From an uncultured Candidatus Saccharibacteria bacterium (lineage in GTDB: Bacteria; Patescibacteriota; Minisyncoccia; Phycocordibacterales; UBA918), in contig CAZNWG010000004.1 in NCBI GenBank assembly GCA_964576905.1, positions 1 to 43,715 of the forward strand: a DNA stretch of 43,715 nt. The letters run 5' to 3'. The notes beneath the pieces were generated by a model. That model was not told where the DNA came from. It saw nothing but the letters and a program-made list of their open reading frames with translations, and made no database searches. Positions within the stretch are counted from its first letter, which is position 1. Every line of letters starts with the position of its first letter. This document shows, in pieces, positions 2,021 through 38,995 of this stretch. The position numbers and the translations under genes are program-made.

Positions 2021-2155
2021 GATATGCCTCCTATCAATGAAACTACACAAAAAATTTATACATCAACTTCTGCCGCGAATATATCATCGAAATCGGACTT
2101 TGTCAAAATGTTGCCTTAAATTCACCTCTGAAACGCAACTATCGTTGCTTTGAAA

Positions 2156-2164
2156 TGCTATACT
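2156..2164 (+). promoter_or_regulatory. Extended -10 (TGcTAtAcT) 6 nt before the helicase ATG
   Basis: The sequence reads tgctatact + agtccc + ATG(2171), with no SD. Confidence 0.5.
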
Positions 2165-2170
2165 AGTCCC

Positions 2171-4302: not shown

Positions 4303-5538
4303 ATGAAAAAATTTGGATTGTTTTTTGCTTCGGCACTTTTTGCATTTTCGGCGTTCATACACCCCGTATTTGCAGAGGAATCAACCGTAACCATTTACTT
4401 TTTTGGACGCAACGACTGCGCACACTGCACGGAAGAGAAAGCGTTTTTGAAAGAGTACCAGAGTACGGTCGAGGGCGTGACCTACACCTACTACAACGTC
4501 ACTGAAGATGCGAGTGCCAAGGAACTCTTTAATACCGTCATAGAAAAACACGGCCTCTCACACATTACGCCACTCACCGTCGTGGGGGATTCGGTCCTTC
4601 AGGGTTTTGATACCAAAGAGACAACGGGTGCTCAGATTATCGATGCTGTGGCGCGCGCGCGAACGTCAGACATTCGCACGCTCGACGACCACATCGCGCG
4701 CGCGCCAAAACAATCAGAAAGTTTTGTGGGTAGTGGCTGTGACTCAGAGGGGACAGAGTGTACCTCAACGGTCAATCCAAACAAGTTTCAATTCAACCTC
4801 CCCATACTTGGGATTGTTGACTTGAGAACATTTTCACTTTTTTCAATTTCGGCAATTCTTGGCACCATTGATGGTTTCAACCCGTGTGCAATGTGGGTAC
4901 TCATCACGTTCCTCGTCCTCCTCACGCAGGTCGGAGATAGAAAGAAGATGATATTTGTCGCGGGACTCTTCATCCTTGCGGAAGCCATCATGTACAACCT
5001 CATCCTCAATGTGTGGTTTACCACGTGGGACTTTGTAGGGCTCGATGCGGTCGTGACACCACTCGTTGGAGTGCTCGCACTCGGTGGAGGGGCATTTTTC
5101 CTCTACCGTTGGCACAAAAACCGTTTCAAGCCACTCATCTGTGACATTTCTGACCTCGAGACGCAGGGAAAGACGATTGCCAAAATTCAAAAAATTATCG
5201 AACAGCCCACAACCATCATCACCGTGCTCGCGGTTATTGCGATAGCGTTCTCCGTCAACATCATCGAATTTGCGTGCTCGATAGGTATTCCACAGGCGTA
5301 CACCAAAATCCTCGAGCTCAACGACCTCTCCTTCATTTCACGCCAGTTCTACATTCTCGTGTACACCCTCGGCTACATGGTCGATGACCTCATTGTCTTC
5401 GGGCTCGCTATATGGGGCTTCTCACGCCTTGAGTCACATGGCCACAAGTACTCCCAACTCTCACTCCTCATCGGTGGTTTCCTCATGCTCCTTTTAGGCG
5501 CGATACTTATCATTGACCCTGCGATTTTTGTGCTCTAG
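4303..5538 (+). CDS. Secreted thioredoxin/glutaredoxin-fold domain (CAHC) fused to a polytopic DsbD/CcdA-like membrane domain
   Basis: There is a signal peptide, then NDCAHCTEEKAFL. Multiple TM segments follow, with GFNPCAMWVL and EFACSIGIPQ cysteine motifs. Confidence 0.65.
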   Translation: MKKFGLFFASALFAFSAFIHPVFAEESTVTIYFFGRNDCAHCTEEKAFLKEYQSTVEGVTYTYYNVTEDASAKELFNTVIEKHGLSHITPLTVVGDSVLQGFDTKETTGAQIIDAVARARTSDIRTLDDHIARAPKQSESFVGSGCDSEGTECTSTVNPNKFQFNLPILGIVDLRTFSLFSISAILGTIDGFNPCAMWVLITFLVLLTQVGDRKKMIFVAGLFILAEAIMYNLILNVWFTTWDFVGLDAVVTPLVGVLALGGGAFFLYRWHKNRFKPLICDISDLETQGKTIAKIQKIIEQPTTIITVLAVIAIAFSVNIIEFACSIGIPQAYTKILELNDLSFISRQFYILVYTLGYMVDDLIVFGLAIWGFSRLESHGHKYSQLSLLIGGFLMLLLGAILIIDPAIFVL

Positions 5539-5611
5539 GGTGTCAAAAACCACACGTGCCCACTGCTCCAAGGTGGTATACTACTCTCATATTCGTTATT
5601 ACAGCCCTACC

Positions 5612-5983
5612 ATGTTTGGATTATTTCGTTCACCAGATACTGATTTACCTCAATCAAATTTTACTCATTCGAAAGATGATATTATTGCAGCGTTCGCGGA
5701 AGATGAGGCGATGCAGATGAAGCAGAAACAATTCGCAGCCGAGCTCGGAGTGTCTCTTGAAGAGGCAATAGAAGTACGTAAAAAGATTTCAAAAGAATAC
5801 AATGATGCACATATGGTGCGAGGTTTATCTGAGGCAGAGGCAATTGCGGACGTCATTGAAAAAAATCAGAGCTATACCAATGAGCAGATATCAATCATTC
5901 TTAGATCTATATGGGGAGTCGATATGCCCGGAGTTGTTGAGGATCCCCGTGGGCATGAGTCAGTGCACGGTACCCTACACTAA
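5612..5983 (+). CDS. Hypothetical protein
   Basis: This is an ORF from an internal ATG. The longer TTG-started version overlaps the previous gene. I recognise no family. Confidence 0.4.
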   Translation: MFGLFRSPDTDLPQSNFTHSKDDIIAAFAEDEAMQMKQKQFAAELGVSLEEAIEVRKKISKEYNDAHMVRGLSEAEAIADVIEKNQSYTNEQISIILRSIWGVDMPGVVEDPRGHESVHGTLH

Positions 5984-24743: not shown

Positions 24744-24806
24744 GCACAATAGTATACAGCGAATGAAAAAATGTGCGCACGAGCCTGATATACTGTTATC
24801 TATAGT

Positions 24807-26267
24807 ATGGATGTGTGGTTTCACAAAGTGTTTCGGTACATGCTCTTTTTGGCGTATGGCATTTTTGCTTTTGCGGTATATGGTGTGGCTCGTGTACCCG
24901 TCTACGCGGAGGAGTCATATGCGCAAGACACACAGACTGAGGTACCAACAGAGATCAACACAGTGGAGGACACGGCACCGCTGAGTGAAAATGTGAATTT
25001 TGATGCACCAATTAGCAAGACAGGAGAGGATGTGTCGCCACCAGATGTTGCGGAAATAATTCCACCTGAGCCGGTCTTGGATACCGATATTTCGCTCCCC
25101 GTTACTCCGCCGATTGAAGAACCTGTGGTATCAGATACACCTACCGAAGGTGATACACCTGAAGAGGTTCCGAGCTCCACAGGAGCCGAAACTTCTTTTG
25201 AAGAGAATGCATCGACCACTGAAAAAATAACTGAGGTACAGGTACCCGTTCCGTTTCCCGCAGATGAATCGCATATTCTTACGGCAGATACCTATGGTCC
25301 TTTTGCACTCATAGACCAACCTGTTTTTGTACTGCATGCCGAGCAGCCGTTTCTTAAAATACGTGAGGACATAGATGGTGATACCAATGAAGGTGGTGTG
25401 ATTGAAGACATGTTTACGACAGTCGACAATGTTGTCGACGCAGTAGTGGAAATGGTAGGAGAAGTAATTGAGGTGGTGGTCGATGCGACAACTGCCGCCG
25501 CCACCTTTGTGGTGGATGCAGTTATTCAAAGCGAAGAACCCACCGAAGTACTCGAGGTTCCTGAAGTGCCTGCGGAGGATGGGGAAGTGCCATCCATACG
25601 TGCTGGTGAAAGCACAGTGGTCACTACAACATCCACAGAAGAAATCGCCGTTGCCACAGACACTGAAACAGAGTCGCTAGATGCTCCTCCAATAGAAGTG
25701 GCTCTACCCGATGCACTATACACGGTGCGCGTACTCGTGGACGGCCAACTCTGCACACACACGAGTAATTTACAGAGTGACACGACGCTCGAAGTGACGG
25801 TTGCGCCTCCATGCATGACACCGGGTACGCATCAGGCACACATTGAGGTGGAGGTGTCCGACACCATATATGTGTGGGAGGGGGAGTTTGTGTGGGGTGG
25901 TGAGGTGATAGCTACACAGACACTCGATACAACTCGTACACTTGCACTCATCGTCTCACCTCTGAGTGGGGCAGGGCTCTGGCTTCGTGAGTTCGTCAAT
26001 GGTGACACGCTCTACACATTCCTCGAAGTGCGAACAGGTGCGCTAGCGCTTCCGCCTATAGGTATGGAAGGTGAAACAATCCTGTGGGTCGCCGATGCAC
26101 AAAATGCACTCATTGGTTTCGACTTGCTCTCACGCACCATCTTTTCACAATCACTCGAGACTCGTCGCGTCGATACCGAAATACCGCTCCATGAAGCGTG
26201 GTATACGGTGCACACCGATGCGCAGACGGTTGACCTTGTACCCGTGCCACCAGAAGAAATACTATGA
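24807..26267 (+). CDS. Secreted or anchored acidic P/E/T-rich protein; first gene of the surface locus
   Basis: It has an N-terminal hydrophobic segment (MLFLAYGIFAFAVYGVARVPVYA). Its stop overlaps the next start (ATGA at 26264-26267). Confidence 0.6.
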   Translation: MDVWFHKVFRYMLFLAYGIFAFAVYGVARVPVYAEESYAQDTQTEVPTEINTVEDTAPLSENVNFDAPISKTGEDVSPPDVAEIIPPEPVLDTDISLPVTPPIEEPVVSDTPTEGDTPEEVPSSTGAETSFEENASTTEKITEVQVPVPFPADESHILTADTYGPFALIDQPVFVLHAEQPFLKIREDIDGDTNEGGVIEDMFTTVDNVVDAVVEMVGEVIEVVVDATTAAATFVVDAVIQSEEPTEVLEVPEVPAEDGEVPSIRAGESTVVTTTSTEEIAVATDTETESLDAPPIEVALPDALYTVRVLVDGQLCTHTSNLQSDTTLEVTVAPPCMTPGTHQAHIEVEVSDTIYVWEGEFVWGGEVIATQTLDTTRTLALIVSPLSGAGLWLREFVNGDTLYTFLEVRTGALALPPIGMEGETILWVADAQNALIGFDLLSRTIFSQSLETRRVDTEIPLHEAWYTVHTDAQTVDLVPVPPEEIL

Positions 26268-29200
26268 TGCAGTACTCCCGCCCACATGTATACACAACAC
26301 TGCGCACAGTGTTCTTTGTGTGTGTTTCAGTGGTCAGTGTTCTCGCGTTTTTTGAGGTGGCGCACCTCCTTGATGGCGCACACTATGCTAAAAAAGTGGT
26401 AAGTGAAATGGCGCCCGAGAAGGCGCTCGCAGTGTATCAATTCTCCCCCACCTCCGGCACTGTCATAACCGGCACTGCCACCACGACCATAGGCCCCACG
26501 CACACCGACTCTTGGAAAGCCACCTTGGGTAATGAATCCGGTACCAACGGTGCCGGCAACTATTGGACCATCGCTCGTACCGCATCAGGCCTCGACGTGC
26601 AACTCCAATTTGATGGAGTGGAACTCCAGGGTGCCAACAAACTTCTCATCACCATGGAGGACACCAATCAAAACACCGCCTCTGCATACGTCCACCAGAT
26701 ATGTGACTGGATATCAAATACAAGTGTCGACAATGAAGCCGACGCACAGTGCACCGGTGGTGGGTGGCGCACGCTCCAACCCCGCAAGACCGCTTATACC
26801 ACGAACAACACCGACACCAATCGTGTGTATGAAATATACGACGGATACTTTAGTACCCGTGTCACCACCCCCGGCACTTCCATTGCAACACCACTCACCA
26901 ACTTTGTGGATACCACAAGCAAGCGTGTCCTCATCCGCGCCTCTTCCACCGTCTCGGGGACACAGGAGATACGCATCGACTACGCACGCGTGGAAGTGGC
27001 CATTGACTCTTTCTATGAACCCTCAGGATTCGCGACCACCTCTGCTGGCGCCACCACCAACTACCTCTCCGACCTCGTCGGTGCAGTCTCCACCAATCTC
27101 ACCGGCTCTGATGGAAACAAACTTACCATTCCTATGGTCGGCGCGTCGCAGGCCGCAGATTTCAACTTCACCTTCGGAAACGTGAAGACCCTCACCGGTA
27201 TGAACACCATCCACGTGGTACCTGAAATCTGTGTCTCGAACGTCGCGCTCCAATTCAACATCTACCTCTATAACTACAACACCGACACGTGGACGCGAGG
27301 CGGTGCGACAACGACGAGTACCGCCTGTGCCACCGACACCGAATACGGCTTCTCCTTCAACGACACCTTCGTCCCCGGGTTTGTCATGAGTGACCACATT
27401 GAAAACGGGGAAGTGAAGGTACGCTTTGTCACCAGTTCTACCTCCGTTGCATACAACATGCAGTTTGACCGCATCTACCTCATGGTGGGTGCGGTGAATG
27501 ACGATACATCGCAGTGCGAGATCAGCTGGGGAAGTGGCACCGCGACCAACTGTGACCGTACCCGCTCCATGGGTGAGGGTATTGCTGCTACTCCCACGAC
27601 GACCACGTGGCAATCCACTGTGGTACTCGAGTATCCTGCAGACCATCACTCGCAAGACAATGACGACGATGCGACAAACGGTGAGTACGCGCAGTCGATG
27701 AATCTCTCGTTTCCCATGCGGGTAGCCTCGAATACTGCTATTACGGGGACACACTACGCGGTGAAGTTCCGCTCGGGTACCACGACGATTACCAATGATG
27801 TCCAACTCAACAAATATGGTGGCGCTTCGGGTTTGGGTGGTGAAGCTGCAGGGTCGGGATGGATAAACACTCCCGGTACCGACACGAACGCCTCCCTCAC
27901 CTACAGCTACTTCGACACCTGGCGTCTCGCGGAACTCGAAGCATCCCCTGAAGACACCGTCGACACGGTGAACGACCGCATGAACCTGCGTCTCCGTACC
28001 TCGGCATCTACCAACATCGCCGGCGGTACCACGAACGACTGGGACTTTGCGATGGTGGGGGTGCGGTGGGTGGAAGAACCGAAGCGCGTTACCGTGACCA
28101 CACAATTCTCCCCCACCTCCGGCACTGTCATAACCGGCACTGCCACCACGACCATAGGCCCCACGCACACCGACTCTTGGAAAGCCACCTTGGGTAATGA
28201 ATCCGGTACCAACGGTGCCGGCAACTATTGGACCATCGCTCGTACCGCATCAGGCCTCGACGTGCAACTCCAATTTGATGGAGTGGAACTCCAGGGTGCC
28301 AACAAACTTCTCATCACCATGGAGGACACCAATCAAAACACCGCCTCTGCATACGTCCACCAGATATGTGACTGGATATCAAATACAAGTGTCGACAATG
28401 AAGCCGACGCACAGTGCACCGGTGGTGGGTGGCGCACGCTCCAACCCCGCAAGACCGCTTATACCACGAACAACACCGACACCAATCGTGTGTATGAAAT
28501 ATACGACGGATACTTTAGTACCCGTGTCACCACCCCCGGCACTTCCATTGCAACACCACTCACCAACTTTGTGGATACCACAAGCAAGCGTGTCCTCATC
28601 CGCGCCTCTTCCACCGTCTCGGGGACACAGGAGATACGCATCGACTACGCACGCGTGGAAGTGGCCATTGACTCTTTCTATGAACCCTCAGGATTCGCGA
28701 CCACCTCTGCTGGCGCCACCACCAACTACCTCTCCGACCTCGTCGGTGCAGTCTCCACCAATCTCACCGGCTCTGATGGAAACAAACTTACCATTCCTAT
28801 GGTCGGCGCGTCGCAGGCCGCAGATTTCAACTTCACCTTCGGAAACGTGAAGACCCTCACCGGTATGAACACCATCCACGTGGTACCTGAAATCTGTGTC
28901 TCGAACGTCGCGCTCCAATTCAACATCTACCTCTATAACTACAACACCGACACGTGGACGCGAGGCGGTGCGACAACGACGAGTACCGCCTGTGCCACCG
29001 ACACCGAATACGGCTTCTCCTTCAACGACACCTTCGTCCCCGGGTTTGTCATGAGTGACCACATTGAAAACGGGGAAGTGAAGGTACGCTTTGTCACCAG
29101 TTCTACCTCCGTTGCATACAACATGCAGTTTGACCGCATCTACCTCATGGTGGGTGCGGTGAATGACGATACATCGCAGTGCGAGATCAGCTGGGGAAGT

Positions 29201-30238
29201 GGCACCGCGACCAACTGTGACCGTACCCGCTCCATGGGTGAGGGTATTGCTGCTACTCCCACGACGACCACGTGGCAATCCACTGTGGTACTCGAGTATC
29301 CTGCAGACCATCACTCGCAAGACAATGACGACGATGCGACAAACGGTGAGTACGCGCAGTCGATGAATCTCTCGTTTCCCATGCGGGTAGCCTCGAATAC
29401 TGCTATTACGGGGACACACTACGCGGTGAAGTTCCGCTCGGGTACCACGACGATTACCAATGATGTCCAACTCAACAAATATGGTGGCGCTTCGGGTTTG
29501 GGTGGTGAAGCTGCAGGGTCGGGATGGATAAACACTCCCGGTACCGACACGAACGCCTCCCTCACCTACAGCTACTTCGACACCTGGCGTCTCGCGGAAC
29601 TCGAAGCATCCCCTGAAGACACCGTCGACACGGTGAACGACCGCATGAACCTGCGTCTCCGTACCTCGGCATCTACCAACATCGCCGGCGGTACCACGAA
29701 CGACTGGGACTTTGCGATGGTGGGGGTGCGGTGGGTGGAGAAAAATCCCTCACAGTACATTGCCTTTAGGTTATCTGATAATTCGGTGGGTCTCGGTACA
29801 CTTTCTCCCGGTGAGACACGCTACGCAACAGGGAACCTCTTCGGTACTACAACCGACAGTGAAGCCCACACTATTTCGGTGAGTACCAATGCTGTTGCGG
29901 GCTACGTGGTGACTCTTGATGGTGCAACGCTTACCTGTGCGGGATGTGGCGGAGCGACTTTGACTCCCATAGGGAACACCGCAACCACCGCACTTCCGGG
30001 GACAGAGCAGTTTGGCGTCCGCTACACGCTCCTCTCGGGTACCGGTACGACTACGGCACCCTACGACACATCACTCTACGCATTTGATACTGCGAGTTTC
30101 CCTGACGCGGTTATGAGTGGTCTCGGAGACAGTTACACCTCGGTTTTTGGCGCCCACTACCTAGGAAACGTGACCAACGAAACTGAACCGGGCACCTATA
30201 TGGGGACGGTGACGTACACCGTGACAAGTACGTACTAG
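26264..30238 (+). CDS. Giant surface protein: N-terminal TM/signal, two identical 555-aa modules, and a C-terminal WxL-like (Tyr-variant) domain
   Basis: This is a single uninterrupted 1324-aa ORF. It has an internal perfect repeat, and its C-terminal ~160 aa are homologous to the C-terminus of the next gene. Confidence 0.8.
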   Translation: MMQYSRPHVYTTLRTVFFVCVSVVSVLAFFEVAHLLDGAHYAKKVVSEMAPEKALAVYQFSPTSGTVITGTATTTIGPTHTDSWKATLGNESGTNGAGNYWTIARTASGLDVQLQFDGVELQGANKLLITMEDTNQNTASAYVHQICDWISNTSVDNEADAQCTGGGWRTLQPRKTAYTTNNTDTNRVYEIYDGYFSTRVTTPGTSIATPLTNFVDTTSKRVLIRASSTVSGTQEIRIDYARVEVAIDSFYEPSGFATTSAGATTNYLSDLVGAVSTNLTGSDGNKLTIPMVGASQAADFNFTFGNVKTLTGMNTIHVVPEICVSNVALQFNIYLYNYNTDTWTRGGATTTSTACATDTEYGFSFNDTFVPGFVMSDHIENGEVKVRFVTSSTSVAYNMQFDRIYLMVGAVNDDTSQCEISWGSGTATNCDRTRSMGEGIAATPTTTTWQSTVVLEYPADHHSQDNDDDATNGEYAQSMNLSFPMRVASNTAITGTHYAVKFRSGTTTITNDVQLNKYGGASGLGGEAAGSGWINTPGTDTNASLTYSYFDTWRLAELEASPEDTVDTVNDRMNLRLRTSASTNIAGGTTNDWDFAMVGVRWVEEPKRVTVTTQFSPTSGTVITGTATTTIGPTHTDSWKATLGNESGTNGAGNYWTIARTASGLDVQLQFDGVELQGANKLLITMEDTNQNTASAYVHQICDWISNTSVDNEADAQCTGGGWRTLQPRKTAYTTNNTDTNRVYEIYDGYFSTRVTTPGTSIATPLTNFVDTTSKRVLIRASSTVSGTQEIRIDYARVEVAIDSFYEPSGFATTSAGATTNYLSDLVGAVSTNLTGSDGNKLTIPMVGASQAADFNFTFGNVKTLTGMNTIHVVPEICVSNVALQFNIYLYNYNTDTWTRGGATTTSTACATDTEYGFSFNDTFVPGFVMSDHIENGEVKVRFVTSSTSVAYNMQFDRIYLMVGAVNDDTSQCEISWGSGTATNCDRTRSMGEGIAATPTTTTWQSTVVLEYPADHHSQDNDDDATNGEYAQSMNLSFPMRVASNTAITGTHYAVKFRSGTTTITNDVQLNKYGGASGLGGEAAGSGWINTPGTDTNASLTYSYFDTWRLAELEASPEDTVDTVNDRMNLRLRTSASTNIAGGTTNDWDFAMVGVRWVEKNPSQYIAFRLSDNSVGLGTLSPGETRYATGNLFGTTTDSEAHTISVSTNAVAGYVVTLDGATLTCAGCGGATLTPIGNTATTALPGTEQFGVRYTLLSGTGTTTAPYDTSLYAFDTASFPDAVMSGLGDSYTSVFGAHYLGNVTNETEPGTYMGTVTYTVTSTY
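26438..28102 (+). repeat. Tandem repeat unit 1 (1665 bp, 555 codons)
   Basis: 26438-28074 is identical to 28103-29739. All frames give identical peptides in the ORF track, and I spot-checked the nucleotide lines. Confidence 0.95.
28103..29739 (+). repeat. Tandem repeat unit 2 (lacks the last 28 bp of the unit)
   Basis: The offset is exactly 1665 bp. Identity ends at ...gtgggtgga, followed by agaacc in copy 1 and gaaaaa in copy 2. Confidence 0.95.
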
Positions 30239-30260
30239 ATTGTTTTTAAGTTTTACACAG

Positions 30261-30294
30261 GCGCGGTCAATTTTTATGCAAAAATTGACCGCGC
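30261..30294 (+). other. Perfect 15-bp-stem hairpin (4-nt loop) without a U-tract, between the giant and small subunit genes
   Basis: The sequence is gcgcggtcaattttt-atgc-aaaaattgaccgcgc. Confidence 0.7.
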
Positions 30295-30386
30295 GCAAGG
30301 TACAATACATCTATATTAGTGAGGGAATTTATTTCTAATAATTTATTTTTTGTATGCGTAGTATCGGAATAGAAGTGGGAGGAAAA

Positions 30387-31418
30387 ATGACCGTAGCGGT
30401 GCTCATGACTGCAGTAGTGCTACTCAGCTGTATCGGTGTGCGCGTTTCGTATGCGGCATCAATCACCTCAGCGTCAGACACCATGTCTTCACAAAAGGTG
30501 AACGCCTCGTCTTCACACGTACTTCGCTTTGTGACCCCCACCGGAGCGTCGGACAACACTGACACCATCATCATCACATTCCCCTCAGATTTTAACTTCA
30601 CCGGAAAAAATATCTCTTCACTTTCCTTCACGCACGGCCCTTCGACCGGTCTTGAAACTACCGAAACTCTCGCGGGGAGCGCCACGGCAGGTAGTTGGGG
30701 TGCCGCTTTTTCAGGTACCCAAAATCGCATTCTCACACTCACCGCACCAACAGATGGCGTGGGTGCAGGAGCGGTTGCTGCAAGTGACAAAATCATCATC
30801 ACCTACGATGCAACAAGCTCGGTAAACCCAAGTTCCCCAACTACCTATGGTATTGGCATTACGGGTGCGTTTGGCGACTCGGGTACTATAACGGTGAGTA
30901 TTGTGAGCGATGACCAAGTGGCTATCGACGCGACCGTGGCACAATCGATTACGTTTTCTATTTCAGACAATAGTGTGAGTTTTGGAACGCTCACCGCCGG
31001 TGCAGCGCGTTACGCTTCGGGTACCGCTTCCGGTGATACCTCAGAAGTGGAAGCGCACAATGTCATCGTGGGTACCAACGCGGCAAACGGCTACACCATG
31101 ACCGCATCAGGAACGACACTCACCTCCGGAGGCAACACTATCAATCCTATTGGTGCAGCAAACACGGCTTCGGCGATAGGGACTGAACAGTTTGGACTTC
31201 GCATGAACGCGTCTGGTGGTAGCGGTGCGGTTGCCGTACCATACGCTGCGGCAGGTTTTGCATTCGACTCCGCTGCATTCCCCGATGTGGTGGCAAGCTC
31301 TGGTACCGCATCAGCAAACACTACGTATTCAGCACGATACATTGCAAACATTACCTCAAATACAGAAGCGGGAAGCTACACCTCAACGATTACCTATTCG
31401 GCAACGGCCAACTATTAA
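30387..31418 (+). CDS. Small surface subunit with a C-terminal WxL-like (Tyr-variant) domain
   Basis: GGGAGG lies 5 nt upstream of the ATG at 30387. It has the signal peptide MTVAVLMTAVVLLSCIGVRVSYA, and its C-terminal half aligns to the giant protein's C-terminus. Confidence 0.75.
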   Translation: MTVAVLMTAVVLLSCIGVRVSYAASITSASDTMSSQKVNASSSHVLRFVTPTGASDNTDTIIITFPSDFNFTGKNISSLSFTHGPSTGLETTETLAGSATAGSWGAAFSGTQNRILTLTAPTDGVGAGAVAASDKIIITYDATSSVNPSSPTTYGIGITGAFGDSGTITVSIVSDDQVAIDATVAQSITFSISDNSVSFGTLTAGAARYASGTASGDTSEVEAHNVIVGTNAANGYTMTASGTTLTSGGNTINPIGAANTASAIGTEQFGLRMNASGGSGAVAVPYAAAGFAFDSAAFPDVVASSGTASANTTYSARYIANITSNTEAGSYTSTITYSATANY

Positions 31419-31473
31419 CGTTTTTGTACAGGGGTGACGAGTTTAACAGACTGGCGTACAATAAGGCCCATTC

Positions 31474-32430
31474 ATGAAAATACATCAGATATTCATACTT
31501 ATACTCTTCACGCTTTCTCTATGTGCGGTACCAAAGGCTTCCGTATTCGCGCTCACGCTTTCTCCGGTACGTATCGAAATTGCTGGTGATCCCGGCCAAA
31601 CGCTCCATGGTGAAATTGAAATCTACAACGAGCAGTCTGAGCAAAAGACGTTCTATACAACATTTGAAAATTTTGAACCGAGTGGTGAGGACGGGGCACC
31701 TAAGTTTGTGGGCGGTGGAAGCGAACTCGCTACATGGATACAGACAGAAGAAATGGTGATTCTCGCACCAAGTGAGAAGCGTACGGTTGCGTACACCATC
31801 ACCATACCTGAGGGTACTGAACCAGGAGGGTACTTCGGTGCAGTTTTTTTTGGAGGTCAAAACCCCGACACACTCGAGAACGGGGAAGTGTCGGTGGGAG
31901 GGAAGCTCGGTACTCTCGTGCTCCTTACCGTCCGCGGTGACATAAAGGAAGGTGCGGGCATTCTCGATTTTGGAGCAAATATCGGTCGTGTGGGTGTGTA
32001 TCTTCCGATATCATTCAGCTACCGCATGAGTAACGACGGTGCCGATCGTATTGTTCCGCGGGGAGATATTCGCATCACCAATACCTTTGGCATGACCGCC
32101 GTATCTATTCCGGCAAACGAACTTGAGGGGAGTATTTTGCCAGAGAGCGCACGTCGCTTCACGAGTGTATGGGCAGGCACAAATGGACCCGGAGCAGGAT
32201 TTTTTGATGCAGTACGCTATGAATGGGAGAATCTCCACATTGGCTGGTATACAGCGCATGCACGCGTCGCGTGGGGTACGCAGAATGGTGTTTCGACAGC
32301 TCGATACGATTTTCTTCTCATCCCGTGGCATTTACTCGTCGTTTGTATGTTCCTTGGTGTTGCACTTACGTATGGTCTAAATAGATACAACACATGGATC
32401 ATCAAACGTTCGAAAACAAACTCGAAATAG
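31474..32430 (+). CDS. Signal peptide + beta-rich ectodomain + single C-terminal TM anchor (DUF916/DUF3324-like or chaperone-like partner)
   Basis: It begins MKIHQIFILILFTLSLCAVPKASVFA and ends WHLLVVCMFLGVALTYGL followed by a basic tail. It also contains LSPVRIEIAGDPGQTLHGEIEIYN and TITIPEGTEPGGYFGAVFF. Confidence 0.7.
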   Translation: MKIHQIFILILFTLSLCAVPKASVFALTLSPVRIEIAGDPGQTLHGEIEIYNEQSEQKTFYTTFENFEPSGEDGAPKFVGGGSELATWIQTEEMVILAPSEKRTVAYTITIPEGTEPGGYFGAVFFGGQNPDTLENGEVSVGGKLGTLVLLTVRGDIKEGAGILDFGANIGRVGVYLPISFSYRMSNDGADRIVPRGDIRITNTFGMTAVSIPANELEGSILPESARRFTSVWAGTNGPGAGFFDAVRYEWENLHIGWYTAHARVAWGTQNGVSTARYDFLLIPWHLLVVCMFLGVALTYGLNRYNTWIIKRSKTNSK

Positions 32431-33461
32431 GAATTGTTTTCGCTATAGTAGTTGCAGGAATGTTCTTTTACTCTCCCGCAATGCTTTTTGCTGAAGACGT
32501 GGTGCTCGAAGGCCGTGTGCCGGGGTGTGGTGATGGGGTGGTGGAGAGTGGAGAATCATGCGATGGCAGTTCACTCAATGCCCAGTCGTGTACGACACTC
32601 GGCTTTAGTGGTGGGGCACTCGCCTGTGCGCCGACATGCATTTTTGATACGAGTGCCTGCACCATATCGAGCGGAGGGGGAGGTGGGGGCGGTGGTGCAA
32701 GCACAAAGTCTGCAAAGTCACTTGTTGCTTTCGAGGGGAAGGCAATGCCGTTTGGGCATATTACGCTTCTTATAGATGGAGCTATTGTTGCTTCGACCAC
32801 AGCGGATCAGCTCGGACAATTTGCCTTTTCAGCACGAAATCTTCCACGGGGTACGTATCAGTTTGATGTATATGGGACCGATTCGTCTGGGATTCAAACA
32901 GCTTCATATTCACTCCGTTCAACAATAGCGAGCAAATCAGTGCTCAAAATTGAGGGTATTTTTTTGGGACCAAGTATAACTTCCGATATGCTCGAAGTTG
33001 TGCCAAAAAAACCCATTGTATTTTCTGGTTTTGCAGTACCGAATTCGCGAATACTCATAACGCTGAGAGGTGAACAAGGACATACAACCTTCTTTTTTGC
33101 GAGTACAAGCGCAGAGGGGATGTACTCATACACAGTTCAGACAGATATACTGCAGAGAGGATACTATTCTGCGTCCGCACAGTCTTTTCTATTTAATGCA
33201 AGCAGTACACCGAGTCGAACGATATGGGTTCGTATTGGGGATGCCAACATATCTCGTACAGAGACTCAATCGACTTGCCCAGCTCGAGGTGATTTGAATA
33301 GCGATTGCAAAGTAAATCTCACTGATTTCTCGATTCTTATGTTTTGGTTCCGCCAAAGATTGAACAGTGATTTTATCCAACGGGAGAAATCATCCCTTTC
33401 TGGTGATGGTCAGGCTGACCTTGTCGACTTCAGTATACTATTCTTTAATTGGACTGGGTGA
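32394..33461 (+). CDS. Secreted protein: Cys-rich CGDG repeat, Gly8 linker, Ig-like middle region, C-terminal dockerin-like pair
   Basis: It contains CGDGVVESGESCDGSSLNAQSC...CAPTCIFDTSAC, then SSGGGGGGGGAS. The C-terminus has GDLNSDCKVNLTDFSILMFW and GDGQADLVDFSILFFNW. Confidence 0.7.
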   Translation: MDHQTFENKLEIGIVFAIVVAGMFFYSPAMLFAEDVVLEGRVPGCGDGVVESGESCDGSSLNAQSCTTLGFSGGALACAPTCIFDTSACTISSGGGGGGGGASTKSAKSLVAFEGKAMPFGHITLLIDGAIVASTTADQLGQFAFSARNLPRGTYQFDVYGTDSSGIQTASYSLRSTIASKSVLKIEGIFLGPSITSDMLEVVPKKPIVFSGFAVPNSRILITLRGEQGHTTFFFASTSAEGMYSYTVQTDILQRGYYSASAQSFLFNASSTPSRTIWVRIGDANISRTETQSTCPARGDLNSDCKVNLTDFSILMFWFRQRLNSDFIQREKSSLSGDGQADLVDFSILFFNWTG

Positions 33462-33477
33462 AGTGTGTGTATGCACA

Positions 33478-33486
33478 TGATATACT
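33478..33486 (+). promoter_or_regulatory. Extended -10 (TGaTAtAcT) 6 nt before the ATG
   Basis: The sequence reads tgatatact + catcat + ATG(33493). Confidence 0.5.
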
Positions 33487-33492
33487 CATCAT

Positions 33493-34086
33493 ATGATAGT
33501 TATAGATATTGAAGCATCGGGGACTGAATATGCGAAGCATTCGATAGTATCTATTGGCGCACTTGATTTTGAGCATCCAGAAAATCGTTTTTATGAAGAG
33601 TGTCGTATTTGGGAAAACGCACACATCATGGAGGAGGCACTTAATGTGACTGGCTTCACTGAGTCAGAAGTTACCGATGTCACCAAGGTACGCGAAGGGG
33701 AATTAGTACGGCACTTCATGGAATGGTCACAGCATATGAGTGACCGAACGCTTGCGGGACAAAATGTTTCATTTGACCGAGATTTTCTCAAGGCTGCCTG
33801 TGACCGTGAAAACCTGCCATGGGACTTAGCACATCGCACGATTGATACCCATACACTTTGCTACATGCACATGGTAAAGAGAGGACTCACACCACCCATC
33901 GACCCTCAGCACAGGCGTTCCGCACTCAACCTCGACGCCGTGATGAACTACTGTGGCATTCCTGAAGAACCCAAGCCACACAACGCGCTCACAGGCGCTC
34001 TTTCCCACGCTGAGGTTATCTCACGGCTTTTGTACGATAAGAAACTTCTCCCCGAATTTGAACAGTACTCGATTCCGTGGCTGTAA
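33493..34086 (+). CDS. DnaQ-like DEDDh 3'-5' exonuclease domain protein
   Basis: It contains IVIDIEASG, NVSFDRDFL and HNALTGALSHAEV. Confidence 0.8.
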   Translation: MIVIDIEASGTEYAKHSIVSIGALDFEHPENRFYEECRIWENAHIMEEALNVTGFTESEVTDVTKVREGELVRHFMEWSQHMSDRTLAGQNVSFDRDFLKAACDRENLPWDLAHRTIDTHTLCYMHMVKRGLTPPIDPQHRRSALNLDAVMNYCGIPEEPKPHNALTGALSHAEVISRLLYDKKLLPEFEQYSIPWL

Positions 34087-34091
34087 GTACA

Positions 34092-34100
34092 TGTTACAAT
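34092..34100 (+). promoter_or_regulatory. Extended -10 (TGtTAcAAT) 6 nt before the ATG
   Basis: The sequence reads tgttacaat + aacaaa + ATG(34107). Confidence 0.5.
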
Positions 34101-34106
34101 AACAAA

Positions 34107-34853
34107 ATGGCATTAAGAAAAAAAAGCAACACAACAGTAAATAAGTTTGATATTAAGACGGATGTACGCAATATGCACTGTCGCATCATGACAGACCTCT
34201 TTGAGACTGACAGTGCAGTGCAGTCATGGCGTATTTTTCGAATCATGTCAGAGTTTGTGAATGGATTTGATATCCTGCGAAAGTACAGCACCGCAGCAAC
34301 CTTTTTTGGAAGCGCGCGCATCAAGCCAACAGAACCAGCATACAAAGATGCTGAAGCACTCGCAGCAAAACTTGCAAAGAAAGGCTTTGCGATTATCACG
34401 GGAGGTGGCCCCGGTATCATGGAAGCTGCAAATGTCGGTGCATTCAAAGTGGGTGGGAAGTCTGTGGGACTCAACATTCAACTCCCCATGGAACAGAAAC
34501 TGAACCCCTACGTCACCGAATCAGAAAGTTTTCACTTCTTCTTCTCGCGCAAGGTGATGCTCTCTTTTGCTTCAGAAGTCTACGTCTATTTTCCCGGTGG
34601 CTTTGGCACACTCGATGAACTTACTGAAATCATCACCCTCATTCAGACGAATAAGATATCAAAGATACCGGTTGTCCTGTACGGTAAAAAGTTCTGGGAT
34701 CCATTCATGCACATTTTTGAAACTACTATGCTCAAAGAATACAAAACTATTAGTAAAGAGGACTTTGAACTTTTCCATGTTGTTGATTCAGTTGATGAAG
34801 CATACGACTACATCATTGCGCACGTTGATCCAAAAACACCACGACAGGTTTAA
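34107..34853 (+). CDS. LOG-family (TIGR00730-type) Rossmann-fold nucleotide-binding protein
   Basis: It contains ITGGGPGIMEAAN and FPGGFGTLDELTE. Confidence 0.88.
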   Translation: MALRKKSNTTVNKFDIKTDVRNMHCRIMTDLFETDSAVQSWRIFRIMSEFVNGFDILRKYSTAATFFGSARIKPTEPAYKDAEALAAKLAKKGFAIITGGGPGIMEAANVGAFKVGGKSVGLNIQLPMEQKLNPYVTESESFHFFFSRKVMLSFASEVYVYFPGGFGTLDELTEIITLIQTNKISKIPVVLYGKKFWDPFMHIFETTMLKEYKTISKEDFELFHVVDSVDEAYDYIIAHVDPKTPRQV

Positions 34854-34871
34854 GCAACTAATCACACCGAT

Positions 34872-36131
34872 ATGCAGTCCACATTTCACAATAGTACGTT
34901 TCCGAAAGATTTGGTAAAAGAGGTCACAAAGAAAGCACGCATCTACACAGGGAAAATTGAAAAAGTCCAGAAAAGTAAAGTTTTCGAGCGCTCCGAGTCG
35001 TCTCTTTTCATTGCGGGTGATACCGCGTACCAGCGTGACATAAAGAAGAAACTCTCACGGTTTAATCGTACGAAACACGTCATACTCGTTGCTATCGGTG
35101 GCTCGATGCAGGGAGCGCAAGCGGTGTACGATGCGTGCAGTCACAAAGATATACCGCGGTTCAGTATCGTAGACAGTATTGAGGAGAAGTACGTTGAGGA
35201 TATGGACCGTGTCATAAAAGCTACCGACGACGCTCGGGACATTGTGCTCGTGGTGGCAAGTAAGTCGGGTACCACCACTGAGACCATGTTCAACGCGCTT
35301 CACATCATCAATCTCTGGGAGAAGAAATTCGGGGAAGCATTCCTGAAGCAGGTGATTTTCATTGGGAATGAGGGGACGTCTTTTTTGGAAGTGGGTGAAA
35401 AAAAGGGCATTCTCTGTTTTACACTCCCGCACGCGATTGGTGGGCGCTTTTCGGTATTCACCGCAGTCGGCATTGTGCCACTCACACTGCTCGGCATCAA
35501 TATTCCGTTACTCCTCAAGGGTGCCATAAGTGCCACCACAAAAAAAGCCCTCGGAGATATTGAGACGAGCGCGGTGACGCTCGCACTCCACGCATACTCC
35601 GGAGCGCACACGGTCAATTTCTTTTCATTCAATAGGCGCTTGCGCTCTTGTGGACTTTGGTACCGCCAGCTCGTTGCAGAGAGTATTGGGAAAAATACCA
35701 CAAAGGGCGAGACCCCCTTTACCCACCAGTTACTACCTATTGTTTCAACCAGTGCCGATTTGCACTCGAGCGCAGAACTGTACCTCGGTGGTTATGCGGG
35801 TATCTACACGCACTTTGTGTACTACAGCGAACACGCCACTACGCGGATGCCTCAGAACCATTGGATGCTCGAGCACATGCCCATATTGAAGAGCAAAAAA
35901 GCGACAGTGGTGAAGGATATTATTACGGAAGGGGTGCTCCATGCGTACAACGACCAGATGCTCCCCTATCGATATACAAAAATGGAGAAATGCACGGAGT
36001 TTGAGGTTGGTTTCCTGCTCGCGTCGCTCATGGCTGAGGTGATGTACCTCGGCTACCTGTTCAACATTGATGCGTTTGATCAGCCGAGTGTTGAATTTTA
36101 TAAAAAGTACGTTCGCGCAGAATTAAACTAA
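34872..36131 (+). CDS. pgi: Glucose-6-phosphate isomerase (SIS-domain PGI)
   Basis: It contains VASKSGTTTET, GGRFSVFTAVG and AFDQPSVE. Confidence 0.85.
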   Translation: MQSTFHNSTFPKDLVKEVTKKARIYTGKIEKVQKSKVFERSESSLFIAGDTAYQRDIKKKLSRFNRTKHVILVAIGGSMQGAQAVYDACSHKDIPRFSIVDSIEEKYVEDMDRVIKATDDARDIVLVVASKSGTTTETMFNALHIINLWEKKFGEAFLKQVIFIGNEGTSFLEVGEKKGILCFTLPHAIGGRFSVFTAVGIVPLTLLGINIPLLLKGAISATTKKALGDIETSAVTLALHAYSGAHTVNFFSFNRRLRSCGLWYRQLVAESIGKNTTKGETPFTHQLLPIVSTSADLHSSAELYLGGYAGIYTHFVYYSEHATTRMPQNHWMLEHMPILKSKKATVVKDIITEGVLHAYNDQMLPYRYTKMEKCTEFEVGFLLASLMAEVMYLGYLFNIDAFDQPSVEFYKKYVRAELN

Positions 36132-36137
36132 AATTAC

Positions 36138-36986
36138 ATGTTCATTCTTTTTGATATCGGTGGAACAAAGACGCGCATTGCCACTACCCATGATCTTTCC
36201 ACTATTGCACAAGTCGAAAAATTTGATACCCCCCGTACCTACGCAGACGGGATGGCGTTGATTATTGCAACCATAGAGCGACTGCGGGGAAGTGATCGTG
36301 TGGAGGCACTCGCGGGTGGAATACGTGGACCTCTCAATCATGAAAAAACAGGCATCGTAAGTGAAAAAGTATTAGTTGATTGGGTAGGGCGCTCCATAGC
36401 AGGCGATCTGAGTGCTCGTTTCAATGCACCAACATTTCTTGAAAATGACACAGCGATTGTTGGTTTGGGTGAAGTCTGTTTTGGTGCAGGGAAGGGAGCT
36501 GATATTGTTGCGTACCACACGGTGAGTACAGGCGTCGGCGGAGCTCGATATGTACACGGGAAACTCGATGTGGTGAGTGTGGGATTTGAACCAGGTCACC
36601 AGATACTTGATGTCGACCGCACCGTGCTTGGTCATTCAATTTCTCCAACACTCGAAAATATGGTATCGGGAAGTGCCCTTGAGCGACGGAGAGGTATGAA
36701 ACCATATGAGATTGCACAAGAGGACCACATTTGGGATGAGCTTGCGGGATACCTTGCGTATGGACTCAAAAACACCATCGTATACTGGTCGCCGAATGTC
36801 ATTGTGCTCGGTGGTTCAATGATTGTAGGCAATCCGAGAATTCTTCTCACAGACATCGTACGCCACACAGAAGAGGTTCTGGATGGATTTGTCCCATGCC
36901 CACTCATTGTCGACGCAACACTAAAAGACGAGGGAGGACTCTATGGTGCAATGGCACTCATAAAGCAAAGACTAAACAATAAATAG
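36138..36986 (+). CDS. ROK-family sugar kinase (glucokinase-like)
   Basis: It contains MFILFDIGGTKTRIA, ENDTAIVGLGE and TVSTGVGG. It lies adjacent to pgi. Confidence 0.75.
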   Translation: MFILFDIGGTKTRIATTHDLSTIAQVEKFDTPRTYADGMALIIATIERLRGSDRVEALAGGIRGPLNHEKTGIVSEKVLVDWVGRSIAGDLSARFNAPTFLENDTAIVGLGEVCFGAGKGADIVAYHTVSTGVGGARYVHGKLDVVSVGFEPGHQILDVDRTVLGHSISPTLENMVSGSALERRRGMKPYEIAQEDHIWDELAGYLAYGLKNTIVYWSPNVIVLGGSMIVGNPRILLTDIVRHTEEVLDGFVPCPLIVDATLKDEGGLYGAMALIKQRLNNK

Positions 36987-37187
36987 TGGTATGTGTCAAG
37001 TAAAAATGTTAATTCCGTGGCTCAAACAGTAGATGTCGTAATTTTTGACATAAATTATATTTGATTGCATAGTTTGCTTTTGAAGCTCAGAATGGTATAA
37101 TCATTTGTGAACGGCTTCGGCTGTTTTTTGTTTGAAGAGAGGTGTCCCGCGTGCGACGCACAGGTACACATTTACTCACAAACAAAT

Positions 37188-37366
37188 TTGTATGAAGGAA
37201 TTTATACAAAGAGCGCTCGCTCGGTTATGTGAGAAATAACTAACGTTCTTTCTCCCACAACCCTCGCTCGCTCCATTGTATGAAGGAATTTATACAAAGA
37301 GCGCTCGCTCGGTTATGTGAGAAATAACTAACGTTCTTTCTCCCACAACCCTCGCTCGCTCCATTG
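37188..37366. repeat. Perfect tandem duplication of an 88-bp unit (2 copies plus a 3-bp ttg overlap)
   Basis: 37191-37278 equals 37279-37366. A ttg is present at each junction (37188, 37276, 37364). Confidence 0.95.
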
Positions 37367-37578
37367 TTGGATAAGACCCTTGGCTTATATTATCGAGTTT
37401 ACTTACAGCAATATTCGCTGTATCGAACGTAGGTGCGGTACCGGTAACGGACATCGCATATGGGCACATTGCAACAAAAGAGCAACATATCACTGAAGAA
37501 AAAGTCGTTGTTGAAAAGAAAATACAAGGAATTGATACTGAGGCTACGGTTCGTTCCTACTTCAGTGATATACCAGTT

Positions 37579-37842
37579 ATGATTCAAATCGCGCGCTGTG
37601 AATCACAATTTCGACATACGCTCGCAGACGGGACAGTCTTGCACGGTTCAGTAGATCCGGCTGACACGGGGGTTATGCAAATCAATACGCGTTTCCACAG
37701 TGAGAAAGCCAGAGAACTTGGGCTGAACTTGAAAGACTTCCACGACAATATGGCGTATGCTCGTAATCTCTATGAACGGCAAGGTACACGACCATGGACA
37801 GCTTCAGCTGCATGTTGGTCAAATACCATCGCAATGCGTTAA
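37579..37842 (+). CDS. Lytic transglycosylase (SLT/lysozyme-like) domain protein; 5' end unresolved
   Basis: It contains IARCESQFRH, DTGVMQINTRFH and NMAYARNLY. The in-frame upstream 68 codons (37375-37578) encode a TM-like segment but contain no ATG, GTG or TTG. Confidence 0.65.
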   Translation: MIQIARCESQFRHTLADGTVLHGSVDPADTGVMQINTRFHSEKARELGLNLKDFHDNMAYARNLYERQGTRPWTASAACWSNTIAMR

Positions 37843-37847
37843 TACAA

Positions 37848-37872
37848 AAAACTCCTTTCGGGGAGTTTTTTG
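37848..37872 (+). terminator. Intrinsic terminator
   Basis: The sequence is aaaactcc-tttcgg-ggagtttttt. Confidence 0.75.
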
Positions 37873-37987
37873 CTGTATACAAAAGCACATAAAGAAACGT
37901 ATAATAGATTGAGATAGGATTGTGGAGCATTAGTCGCCACACCAAGTGGAAGTACGATGAATCAAATATAAATATACTAGTAAACAC

Positions 37988-38227
37988 ATGAAAGCAATTA
38001 TAGGAAAGCAGTATCGACACTATAAGGGGAAGATATATACTGTGCTTGCAATAGCGCGGAGTGAATCCGACTCCAGCGCTGAGCTCGTTATCTATCGCGC
38101 AGAGTATGATTCTCCCGATTATGGTAATCAGTGTGTGTGGGCGAGGGAGCGAAATAATTGGGAAGGTAAAGTCATTGTTGACGACGTAGAACACGATAGG
38201 TTTACAGTGCTCAGTAGTGATACATGA
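37988..38227 (+). CDS. DUF1653-family small protein
   Basis: YRHYKGKIYTVLAIARSESDSSAELVIYRA is the typical DUF1653 core. Confidence 0.7.
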   Translation: MKAIIGKQYRHYKGKIYTVLAIARSESDSSAELVIYRAEYDSPDYGNQCVWARERNNWEGKVIVDDVEHDRFTVLSSDT

Positions 38228-38230
38228 TTC

Positions 38231-38995
38231 ATGAAAATTGGTTTTTTTGATTCAGGTCTCGGAGGGCTTACCATACTCCACGCAGTGCGAGCGCTCATGC
38301 CACACTACGATTATATTTTTTTTGGTGATACTGCCAATCTGCCCTATGGTGACAAATCTGAAGAGGAGATACATCAGCTTACCTATGAGGGTATAAAACG
38401 ACTTTTTGATGCAGGTGCAGTCCTGGTGATTGTTGCGTGTAATACTGCATCTGCTCGTTCAGTGCGCGTACACCAAGATGAAATGCTCAAGACTGAATAC
38501 CCCGATAGAAAATTACTTGGGGTTATTGTACCAACCGTTGAAACCCTCCTTGAAACAGATGCAAAAAAAGTACTCCTCATTGGAACTGAGCGAACAATCA
38601 AATCAGAAAAGTATGTCATTGAGCTTCGCAAGGGTTCGGAGGGAATGCACCTGTACACGTGCGCGACTCCCGCACTCGTGCCCATGATAGAGGCGGGTGA
38701 TATATCGCGCGCGTGCACATACGTATGCGAGCTCATTGACACGCGGTACTCAGACGTGGACACCGTCGTCCTCGGGTGCACACACTATACGCTCATCAAG
38801 GACTGTCTGAGAGCAGAACATGTAAAAAACATCATCTCACAGGATGAAATAATTCCTGCAAAACTAAAAAACTATTTATCACGACATCCCGAAATTGAAT
38901 CTCGACTATCACGCAAGGGAAGTGTAGGGGTCGAGCTCAGCGCTGATACGGACGAGTATGAAAGAATCCGAAAAATGCTTGGGGTTGATGTGTAG
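38231..38995 (+). CDS. murI: Glutamate racemase
   Basis: It contains IGFFDSGLGGLT, VIVACNTAS and VVLGCTHY. Confidence 0.92.
   Translation: MKIGFFDSGLGGLTILHAVRALMPHYDYIFFGDTANLPYGDKSEEEIHQLTYEGIKRLFDAGAVLVIVACNTASARSVRVHQDEMLKTEYPDRKLLGVIVPTVETLLETDAKKVLLIGTERTIKSEKYVIELRKGSEGMHLYTCATPALVPMIEAGDISRACTYVCELIDTRYSDVDTVVLGCTHYTLIKDCLRAEHVKNIISQDEIIPAKLKNYLSRHPEIESRLSRKGSVGVELSADTDEYERIRKMLGVDV

Follow-up and report, generated by a model that had tools for sequence, protein, structure and literature searches.

Within a 43,715-nucleotide stretch of DNA from an uncultured Candidatus Saccharibacteria bacterium (assembly GCA_964576905.1, contig CAZNWG010000004.1; the whole stretch is referred to here as the window), we examined an open reading frame (ORF) at positions 26264-30238 of the forward strand. 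It encodes a large surface or pilus protein of 1,324 aa and contains two copies of one long module. An earlier note, made from the letters of this DNA, had called the gene giant, a word that overstates a 1,324-aa product, and had described a nucleotide-perfect, in-frame repeat inside it. That repeat was confirmed by direct comparison over the whole window: positions 26438-28074 (module 1) and 28103-29739 (module 2) agree over 1,637 bp with 0 mismatches, and the offset between them is 1,665 bp, or 555 codons, in frame within a single ORF. At this offset no other exact run of 15 nt or longer was found in the window, and a separate repeat search returned the same pair (first 300 nt displayed). 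Since the longest repeat expected by chance in 43.7 kb is, by our own estimate, ~15 nt, the repeat lies far beyond chance. In the 60 nt outside each border, 41 to 46 of the 60 positions differ at the same offset, indicating that identity between the copies stops abruptly.

The copies are separated by 28 bp (28075-28102; AGAACCGAAGCGCGTTACCGTGACCACA) that occur solely between them and match neither flank of the repeat pair. This segment shares one base with the last codon of the unit and encodes EPKRVTVTT. The earlier note had taken it for a tail of copy 1; it is indeed unrepeated, and it is better described as a unique, in-frame inter-module linker, which is conserved in homologues (see below). 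When JGI metagenome contigs were searched for exact copies of these 28 bp, there were 0 matches. The annotated form of the window's protein (P0122; proteins are numbered P and loci L throughout) has 1,323 aa. A diversity-generating or otherwise programmed mechanism was ruled out, as neither inverted repeats nor template-like partial copies were present in the window.

From its N terminus, the protein comprises a leader, module 1, the linker, module 2, and a C-terminal pilin domain. The leader (26264-26437), delimited by hydropathy and translation, combines a hydrophobic anchor or signal at aa 9-39 with a spacer ending in EKALAVY; with a Kyte-Doolittle hydropathy of 2.35, this segment fits the Sec-export signal expected at the N terminus of Pam-type pilins. 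The Pam pilus is a donor-strand-exchange pilus specific to the candidate phyla radiation (CPR), described with the pilins PamA, PamB, PamE, and PamT of Ca. Mycosynbacter amalyticus (10.64898/2026.03.03.709456), and its families are modeled by NCBIfam NF058581 and NF058579. After module 2 come ~165 aa (29740-30238, stop included), made up of a post-module strand (KNPSQYIAF...) and the putative pilin domain. The NF058581 hidden Markov model (HMM; CPR_Pam_pilin_C) matched aa 1187-1324 at 51.1 bits (E 1.5e-13, cut-off 55), and the C-domain is 45% identical (E 2e-42) to that of the pilin encoded next to it at 30354-31418. Taken together, this sub-threshold HMM match, the strong paralogue, and the gene context suggest that the domain is of the Pam type.

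The AlphaFold2 model of both modules (aa 57-1175, built from a 90-sequence alignment) was all-beta and very confident, with a predicted local distance difference test score (pLDDT) of 91.9 and a predicted template-modeling (pTM) score of 0.90, and its strand pattern suggests about three beta-sandwich domains in each ~546-aa module. In Foldseek searches, the modules matched only generic arrays of jelly-roll or carbohydrate-binding-module (CBM)-like domains, with low TM-scores; from the PDB these included reelin repeats, tandem CBM22, GH101 accessory domains, SGBP-B, and MAM domains, whereas the BFVD matches were to proteins of phage tails and of phage host specificity. The C-domain model (pLDDT 89.7) gave weak matches (E 0.03-0.5, TM 0.4-0.48) enriched in chaperone-usher pilins (Caf1, CsuA/B, the PapG pilin domain, FimA, and CfaB), with no Pam structure among the PDB matches listed. 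Pfam returned nothing significant for the whole protein, one module, or the C-terminal domain (DUF7372 reached 23.5 bits, short of its cut-off of 27, and YedD was noise), a PDB sequence search with the protein found no match, and Rfam found nothing at gathering thresholds in the whole window. Judged from fold and context, a role as a surface adhesin is plausible. The gene also stands apart in composition: positions 26001-30000 have a GC content of 0.54-0.56, compared with 0.43-0.51 in neighboring kilobases, and negative GC skew; GC content at third codon positions (GC3) falls from 0.67 in the modules to 0.55 in the pilin domain and 0.49 in the flanking ORFs.

The family of two-module proteins

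Homologues were taken as the 120 best proteins, and counts are given over 121 proteins. Two modules were present in 110 of the 121, one in 11, and three in none, and the layout of two modules joined by a linker extended to more than 100 homologues, down to ~31% identity. In all 90 of the aligned two-module proteins (90/90), the linker lay at the same site and had a length of 8-10 aa, with recurring E-[ED]-x-x-[RH]-x-[TS] features; among close relatives it reads EPKRVTVTT in P0001 and EPRRVSVTT in P0125. Its position and length are conserved family-wide, and it is never converted. Protein identity between the two modules of one gene ranged continuously from 36% to 100% in the 110 two-module proteins: it was at least 99% in 15 (the window's included), 95-99% in 2, 80-95% in 7, 60-80% in 23, and below 60% in 63.

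These data bear on the possibility, raised in the earlier note, that the repeat is a very recent, one-off tandem duplication in the lineage of the window. The 0 substitutions over 1,637 bp would fit such an event, as would a one-module allele in the same species (described below). However, a simple tandem duplication should have a junction of unit or flank sequence only and should be missing from relatives. The junction here is instead a unique 28 bp that matches neither flank and does not run from unit to unit; the linker is conserved in relatives and alike in length across the family; and two modules occur in more than 100 homologues, some with only 36-60% identity between modules. We consider a recent duplication highly improbable. 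The two-module layout is old and family-wide, and it is the current identity that is young.

The organism names given by the sources for the listed homologues were all CPR (Parcubacteria, Doudnabacteria, Dojkabacteria, Falkowbacteria, Nomurabacteria, and Paceibacterota). Locus titles were likewise mostly CPR groups, with about a dozen Gammaproteobacteria or Bdellovibrionales, which are unverified labels of metagenome-assembled genomes (MAGs). The two-module block was joined to at least four unrelated C termini (a Pam-type pilin domain in ~47/121, "DIVDxxG...", "PVTGAVTC...", and long extensions; varied examples include P0006-P0012, P0019, P0029, P0031, P0046, and P0057), so the heads behave as a portable cassette. 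In one sub-family (P0093, P0095, P0099, and P0100), the modules are 956 aa long, and each has an insertion of ~440-480 aa that contains repeated motifs and looks beta-propeller-like.

Homogenization of modules in separate lineages

The relatives were surveyed at 57 loci, one genome per species. The closely related protein P0001 (locus L001) has its own exact 1,619-bp module pair, which is 80% identical to the modules of the window, with a synonymous divergence (dS) of 1.2, a nonsynonymous divergence (dN) of 0.07, and a dN/dS of ~0.06; the modules are thus under strong purifying selection. In L062 (P0125), whose modules are 88.7% identical to those of the window, the pair differs by 3 mismatches in 1,638 bp. 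Among the 57 species-representative loci, exact pairs with 0 mismatches were found in L006, L027, L028, L049, and L054, up to a length of 2,872 bp, and near-exact pairs in L024, L025, and L050 (1 mismatch each) and L005 (7 mismatches); the proteins of these homogenized scan loci are 31-58% identical to that of the window. Besides the window, at least 11 species-level lineages therefore have exact or near-exact pairs, although modules compared across lineages differ by 11-70%. The two units of one lineage (0 mismatches in the window, 0 in L001, and 3 in L062) resemble each other more closely than do units from separate lineages (80-89% identity).

The same comparison speaks to the idea that identity is kept by selection on the nucleotide or protein sequence without recombination. 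Strong purifying selection, as reflected in the dN/dS of ~0.06, would favor that idea. In contrast, synonymous sites are near-saturated between lineages (dS 1.2), yet the copies within each lineage show 0 synonymous differences. Selection alone is thus insufficient, its probability as the explanation being close to nil, and the copies must have undergone a separate, recent homogenization in each lineage.

The positions of the remaining differences carry the marks of recombination. These marks come from the homologues, as the fully identical pair of the window carries no tract information. In L017, every one of the 46 mismatches is confined to 112 nt at the start or 40 nt at the end of the module, leaving the central 1,400 nt without any; mismatches are also placed at the edges in L062 and L001 (all of them) and in L005 (6/7). 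Conversely, some diverged pairs contain exact patches of 641 nt (L011), 412 nt (L012), and 184 nt (L040) against a background of 65-85% identity, in which runs of ~30 nt are expected. Those patches that are internal, with diverged sequence on either side (L012 and L040), require non-reciprocal transfer. Orthology of module 1 to module 1 holds only among relatives of at least ~50-60% identity and vanishes deeper in the family, and the two modules of one protein are reciprocal best matches in 36 of 103 proteins, which argues for repeated resets rather than one ancient split. The suggestion of ongoing gene conversion in the earlier note thus gains family-wide support from independent homogenization in many lineages, edge-confined mismatches, and exact partial tracts in diverged pairs.

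Base composition points in the same direction. The excess of GC3 in the modules over the rest of the same gene was +0.106 in 13 homogenized loci versus +0.037 in 15 diverged loci (Mann-Whitney p=0.013; Spearman rho 0.54, p=0.003); when modules were compared with flanking ORFs, there was a trend only (p=0.076). The module GC3 excess fits GC-biased conversion and is supportive only.

Two further sets of repeats were observed at these loci. In L049 (6127-11893), L050 (2569-8343), and L054 (6119-11884), which represent three species with proteins ~67-70% identical to each other, both 2.87-kb modules are identical (0-1 mismatch), including the insertion. In L013 (7879-10277), L015 (10382-12211), L023 (5116-6660), and L005 (9539-11144), direct repeats with 1.1-1.25-kb spacing and 70-86% identity were found where the match to the two-module gene reaches its 3' end or a little past that point; repetition of C-terminal domains or tandem duplication of genes downstream might account for them.

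One-module alleles and the proposed mechanism of exchange

We explain the identical modules by intragenic gene conversion, that is, concerted evolution, of an old two-module pilus protein, and we put the probability of this reading at roughly 0.8. The gene would encode a secreted, pilus-associated CPR protein with two 546-aa heads, each of about three lectin- or CBM-like beta-sandwich domains; the fixed 9-aa linker would join the heads, and the Pam-type pilin domain would plug the protein into a donor-strand-exchange pilus. Homologous recombination between the direct repeats would repeatedly copy one module over the other by intragenic gene conversion, possibly aided by unequal sister-strand exchange. 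The modules would thereby evolve in concert, those of the window now being identical up to the borders where homology ends, and the same recombination could delete one module plus the linker, giving the one-module allele of a 99.2%-identical strain. We infer a RecA-type mechanism, an adhesin or host-binding role, and selection for two heads.

The one-module allele in question is P0123 (769 aa), which equals the window protein minus one module and the linker, plus one substitution. Its contig, L061 (MEGAHIT k141, 3,301 bp, ENA ERZ27258489), is 99.1-99.2% identical to the window in nucleotides and reads from leader through module to pilin domain without a break. An unbroken MEGAHIT unitig across both module borders suggests that the linker junction is absent or rare in the sample. 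This one-module form is the exact product expected of deletion by recombination between the repeats. Similar cases recur elsewhere, as protein clusters at 90% identity mix one- and two-module members: P0125 (two modules) falls in the same 90% cluster as P0004 (one module, at the syntenic locus L002), P0133 pairs with P0044, and the one-module P0043 is 96% identical to the two-module P0008. The nearest match of a one-module protein is a two-module protein whose modules are 79-100% alike, with the exception of P0120 (nearest 53%). Contraction from two modules to one by recombination is probably real. The earlier note had proposed that the protein changes length in 555-aa steps and that strains might carry alleles with 1, 2, or 3 units: a one-step contraction (L061, 99.2% nucleotide identity) and alleles with 1 and 2 units were found, but no expansion was seen, with three-module alleles numbering 0 in 120 proteins and 60 loci, although identical modules could hide one in short-read assemblies. 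Of the 18 differences between the window and L061, when polarized with outgroups, only 2 were clearly derived in the window and 10 were ambiguous; the differences cluster in two patches and are not decisive for dating the last conversion.

A rival possibility is that sister chromosomes cross over unequally, in cycles of 2 to 3 to 2 modules or from 2 to 1, and that homogenization comes mainly from these exchanges and not from non-reciprocal gene conversion, with identity as a by-product of copy-number turnover. One-module alleles do occur alongside homogenized two-module genes, identity spans whole modules to the homology borders, and unequal exchange also predicts the edge effect. Set against this, three-module alleles are missing from the 120 proteins and 60 loci, the internal exact patches in L012 and L040 need patch conversion or a double exchange, and simply duplicating a one-module gene again could not restore its conserved linker. 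We regard unequal crossing-over as the main process as a possible but doubtful account.

Finally, an assembler might have duplicated or homogenized a genome that really has one module or two diverged ones, as the earlier note had also suggested. The contig of the window is metagenome-assembled, a 99.2%-identical one-module contig exists, and many related contigs end inside the gene; in addition, bulge removal of the SPAdes type can erase isolated single-nucleotide polymorphisms (SNPs) between repeat copies. Yet no assembler could make up a linker that is in frame and agrees with the family consensus, relatives assembled independently have the same structure, with 1-46 mismatches kept in some of them, and modules at 70-90% identity would not be merged. 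An artefact in this sense is very unlikely, and with the conserved linker and the independent assemblies it is unlikely to account for the existence of two copies, while collapsed SNPs or a copy number above two are possible. Among the species-representative contigs, about one in four stops within or at the gene (L010, L020, L021, L030, L033, L038, L043, and L044, and further L048, L051, L053, L055, L056, L058, and L059), most related assemblies being short-read MAGs. Such breaks are typical of near-identical repeats, and the frequency of homogenized alleles is therefore probably underestimated.

Several points weigh against intragenic conversion of a Pam-type pilus protein. Perfect identity and exactly two copies, as read from the assembly, are unproven for the genome of the window; when repeats are nearly identical, a short-read assembler can merge away a few SNPs between them, and it walks through a repeat loop as few times as possible. 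In principle, the one-module contigs might result from collapse during assembly. Conversion is inferred from its products, and 2 to 3 to 2 cycles of unequal exchange could also homogenize whole modules. At 51.1 bits, the Pam-domain HMM match falls short of the curated cut-off of 55, the fold matches of the modules are generic (TM 0.1-0.5), and the GC3 test used few, phylogenetically non-independent loci.

Pilus context, related systems, and neighboring sequence

The surroundings of the two-module gene resemble a Pam operon. Immediately upstream, a gene at 24807-26267 (+; 486 aa, hydrophobic window at aa 12-32), whose stop overlaps the start of the two-module gene, had no Pfam or NCBIfam match; it is syntenic in L002, and a longer family-less gene (523-527 aa) occupies the same slot in L003 and L062. 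Downstream, the gene at 30354-31418 (+) encodes a 354-aa Pam-type pilin (NF058581, 80.2 bits against the cut-off of 55; PamT-like, 36.5 bits) with a hydrophobic N terminus and a layout of signal peptide, N-terminal domain, and pilin C-domain. It is followed at 31474-32430 (+) by a 318-aa candidate membrane-anchored pilus chaperone, with a signal peptide and a C-terminal transmembrane (TM) helix plus basic tail (hydrophobic windows at aa 1-29 and 278-302), which gave a weak WxLIP_PGBD match (E 0.0035) and no NCBIfam match. The last gene of the conserved block (32394-33461, +) encodes a 355-aa secreted, Cys-rich, Ig-like (Big_13), dockerin-like protein and is syntenic in L001, L002, L003, and L062.

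As described in the Pam preprint, the chaperones PamC and PamD carry a C-terminal TM helix (10.64898/2026.03.03.709456). The window shares several features with that system: the C-terminal domain of the two-module protein gives a sub-threshold match to the Pam pilin C-domain model, whose curated cut-off the neighboring gene clears; an N-terminal signal is present, and the protein would follow the described order of an N-terminal beta-sandwich part, a strand, and a truncated-Ig-like C-domain; its operon includes a second pilin and a protein with a signal and a C-terminal TM that resembles PamC/PamD and is a candidate for the PapD-like chaperone of a Pam operon; and the family occurs only in CPR genomes, judged by source-given organism names. 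It differs in that its N-terminal part is two 546-aa, three-domain modules, whereas that of the described Pam pilins is one nine-strand sandwich; in that its HMM score is below the cut-off and no PamR-like anchor was recognized; and in that ~60% of two-module family members bear other C-terminal domains. Neither duplicated modules nor concerted evolution is reported in the Results and Discussion of the preprint (10.64898/2026.03.03.709456).

The overall plan, a head followed by a pilin domain, also recalls other adhesins. FimH and PapG are two-domain chaperone-usher tip adhesins in which a receptor-binding head is fused to a donor-strand-completed pilin domain, and the best neighbors of our C-domain model include the PapG pilin domain, FimA, Caf1, and CsuA/B. 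However, the structural resemblance is slight (E 0.03-0.5), the cell in question is a monoderm-like CPR bacterium that lacks an usher, there are two large identical heads instead of one lectin domain, and a tip position for the window protein is hypothetical.

Nucleotide-identical intragenic repeats kept by recombination are already well known, and the mechanism here is of a known kind. Gram-positive surface proteins of the alpha C/Rib, Esp, and SasG/Aap types have nucleotide-identical tandem repeats of ~80-130 aa in many, highly variable copies. They share with the two-module gene intragenic, in-frame, DNA-identical repeats whose number is changed by recombination to give surface-protein length variants, but the unit of the two-module family is 546-956 aa (1.6-2.9 kb), its copy number is two (sometimes one), and its conserved linker is unrepeated. 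Copy-number polymorphism of the alpha C/Rib kind was seen as 1 versus 2 modules at 99.2% nucleotide identity and in two or three other near-identical groups, with none above 2, and collapse is possible. The tufA/tufB genes and rRNA operons undergo concerted evolution by gene conversion, their copies being near-identical within a genome while orthologues diverge and tracts are patchy. The two-module family shows the same within-genome near-identity, between-species divergence, and patchy conversion tracts; the copies of those systems are separate, distant genes, whereas in the window a single ORF holds both copies as its two halves, with 28 bp between them. The spider silk gene AcSp1 is also reported to show intragenic concerted evolution, its long coding repeats being near-identical at the nucleotide level within one gene (PMC3563967); that case is eukaryotic and concerns a fibre protein with many copies. 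What is distinct in the two-module family is the multi-domain unit of 1.6-2.9 kb, the copy number fixed at two, a linker that is conserved and never converted, and the repeated appearance of this pattern throughout a deep radiation, in a pilus system whose description dates from 2026.

CPR bacteria, or Patescibacteria, are thought to live attached to host cells, and host recognition is little understood. The two-module family would add to the Pam system a large two-headed protein whose receptor-like modules recombination repeatedly homogenizes and sometimes halves, over a very deep radiation, and it offers a clear, easily testable case of kilobase-scale concerted evolution that takes place within one bacterial gene, in organisms with minimal genomes. 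It also flags a likely host-binding determinant with a natural one-head/two-head polymorphism, possibly tied to host range. A more specific proposal, that the matched heads are functional and form a two-headed host-recognition adhesin of CPR Pam-like pili selected for bivalent binding, is in our judgment speculative and rather unlikely. If it were true, gene conversion would spread a change of specificity to both heads at once, recombinational switching between one head and two would let a population of an epibiotic bacterium change avidity, length, or host range, and the modules would bear a compositional imprint of GC-biased conversion. On the practical side, two-module genes are systematically misassembled in short-read MAGs, as contigs break inside them and copies may collapse.

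The rest of the window is ordinary chromosome, carrying DnaB, CysRS, GluRS, MurG, PGI, and CorA, which ruled out a mobile-element or phage origin. We also compared the window with the syntenic one-module locus L002. The pilus operon (24747-32911) is 82-95% identical in nucleotides (dS 0.14-0.44), while the adjoining housekeeping genes (32912-38946: RNase T, LOG, PGI, and ROK) are 72-75% identical, with dS above 1.8 or saturated. Being far closer to L002 than the flanking genes are, the operon appears to have been exchanged as a whole; this suggests a recent exchange between lineages, horizontally or by recombination. In L002, the chaperone-like gene (5053-5983) is present as two overlapping ORFs of 208 and 121 aa instead of one of ~318 aa, either a frameshift/pseudogene or a sequencing error.

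Two smaller repeats lie elsewhere in the window. At 37188-37363, in the intergenic sequence after the ROK-family gene, there is a perfect 88-bp head-to-tail tandem duplication (two copies), around which the alignment with L002 is poor (58% identity and 69 gapped positions in a 500-nt segment). The other is an 85-nt direct repeat (93%) between the contig start (1-85) and positions 2193-2277, at the start of a PIF1-like helicase gene (2150-3853); the copy at the contig start is probably part of a paralogous helicase gene cut by the contig end.

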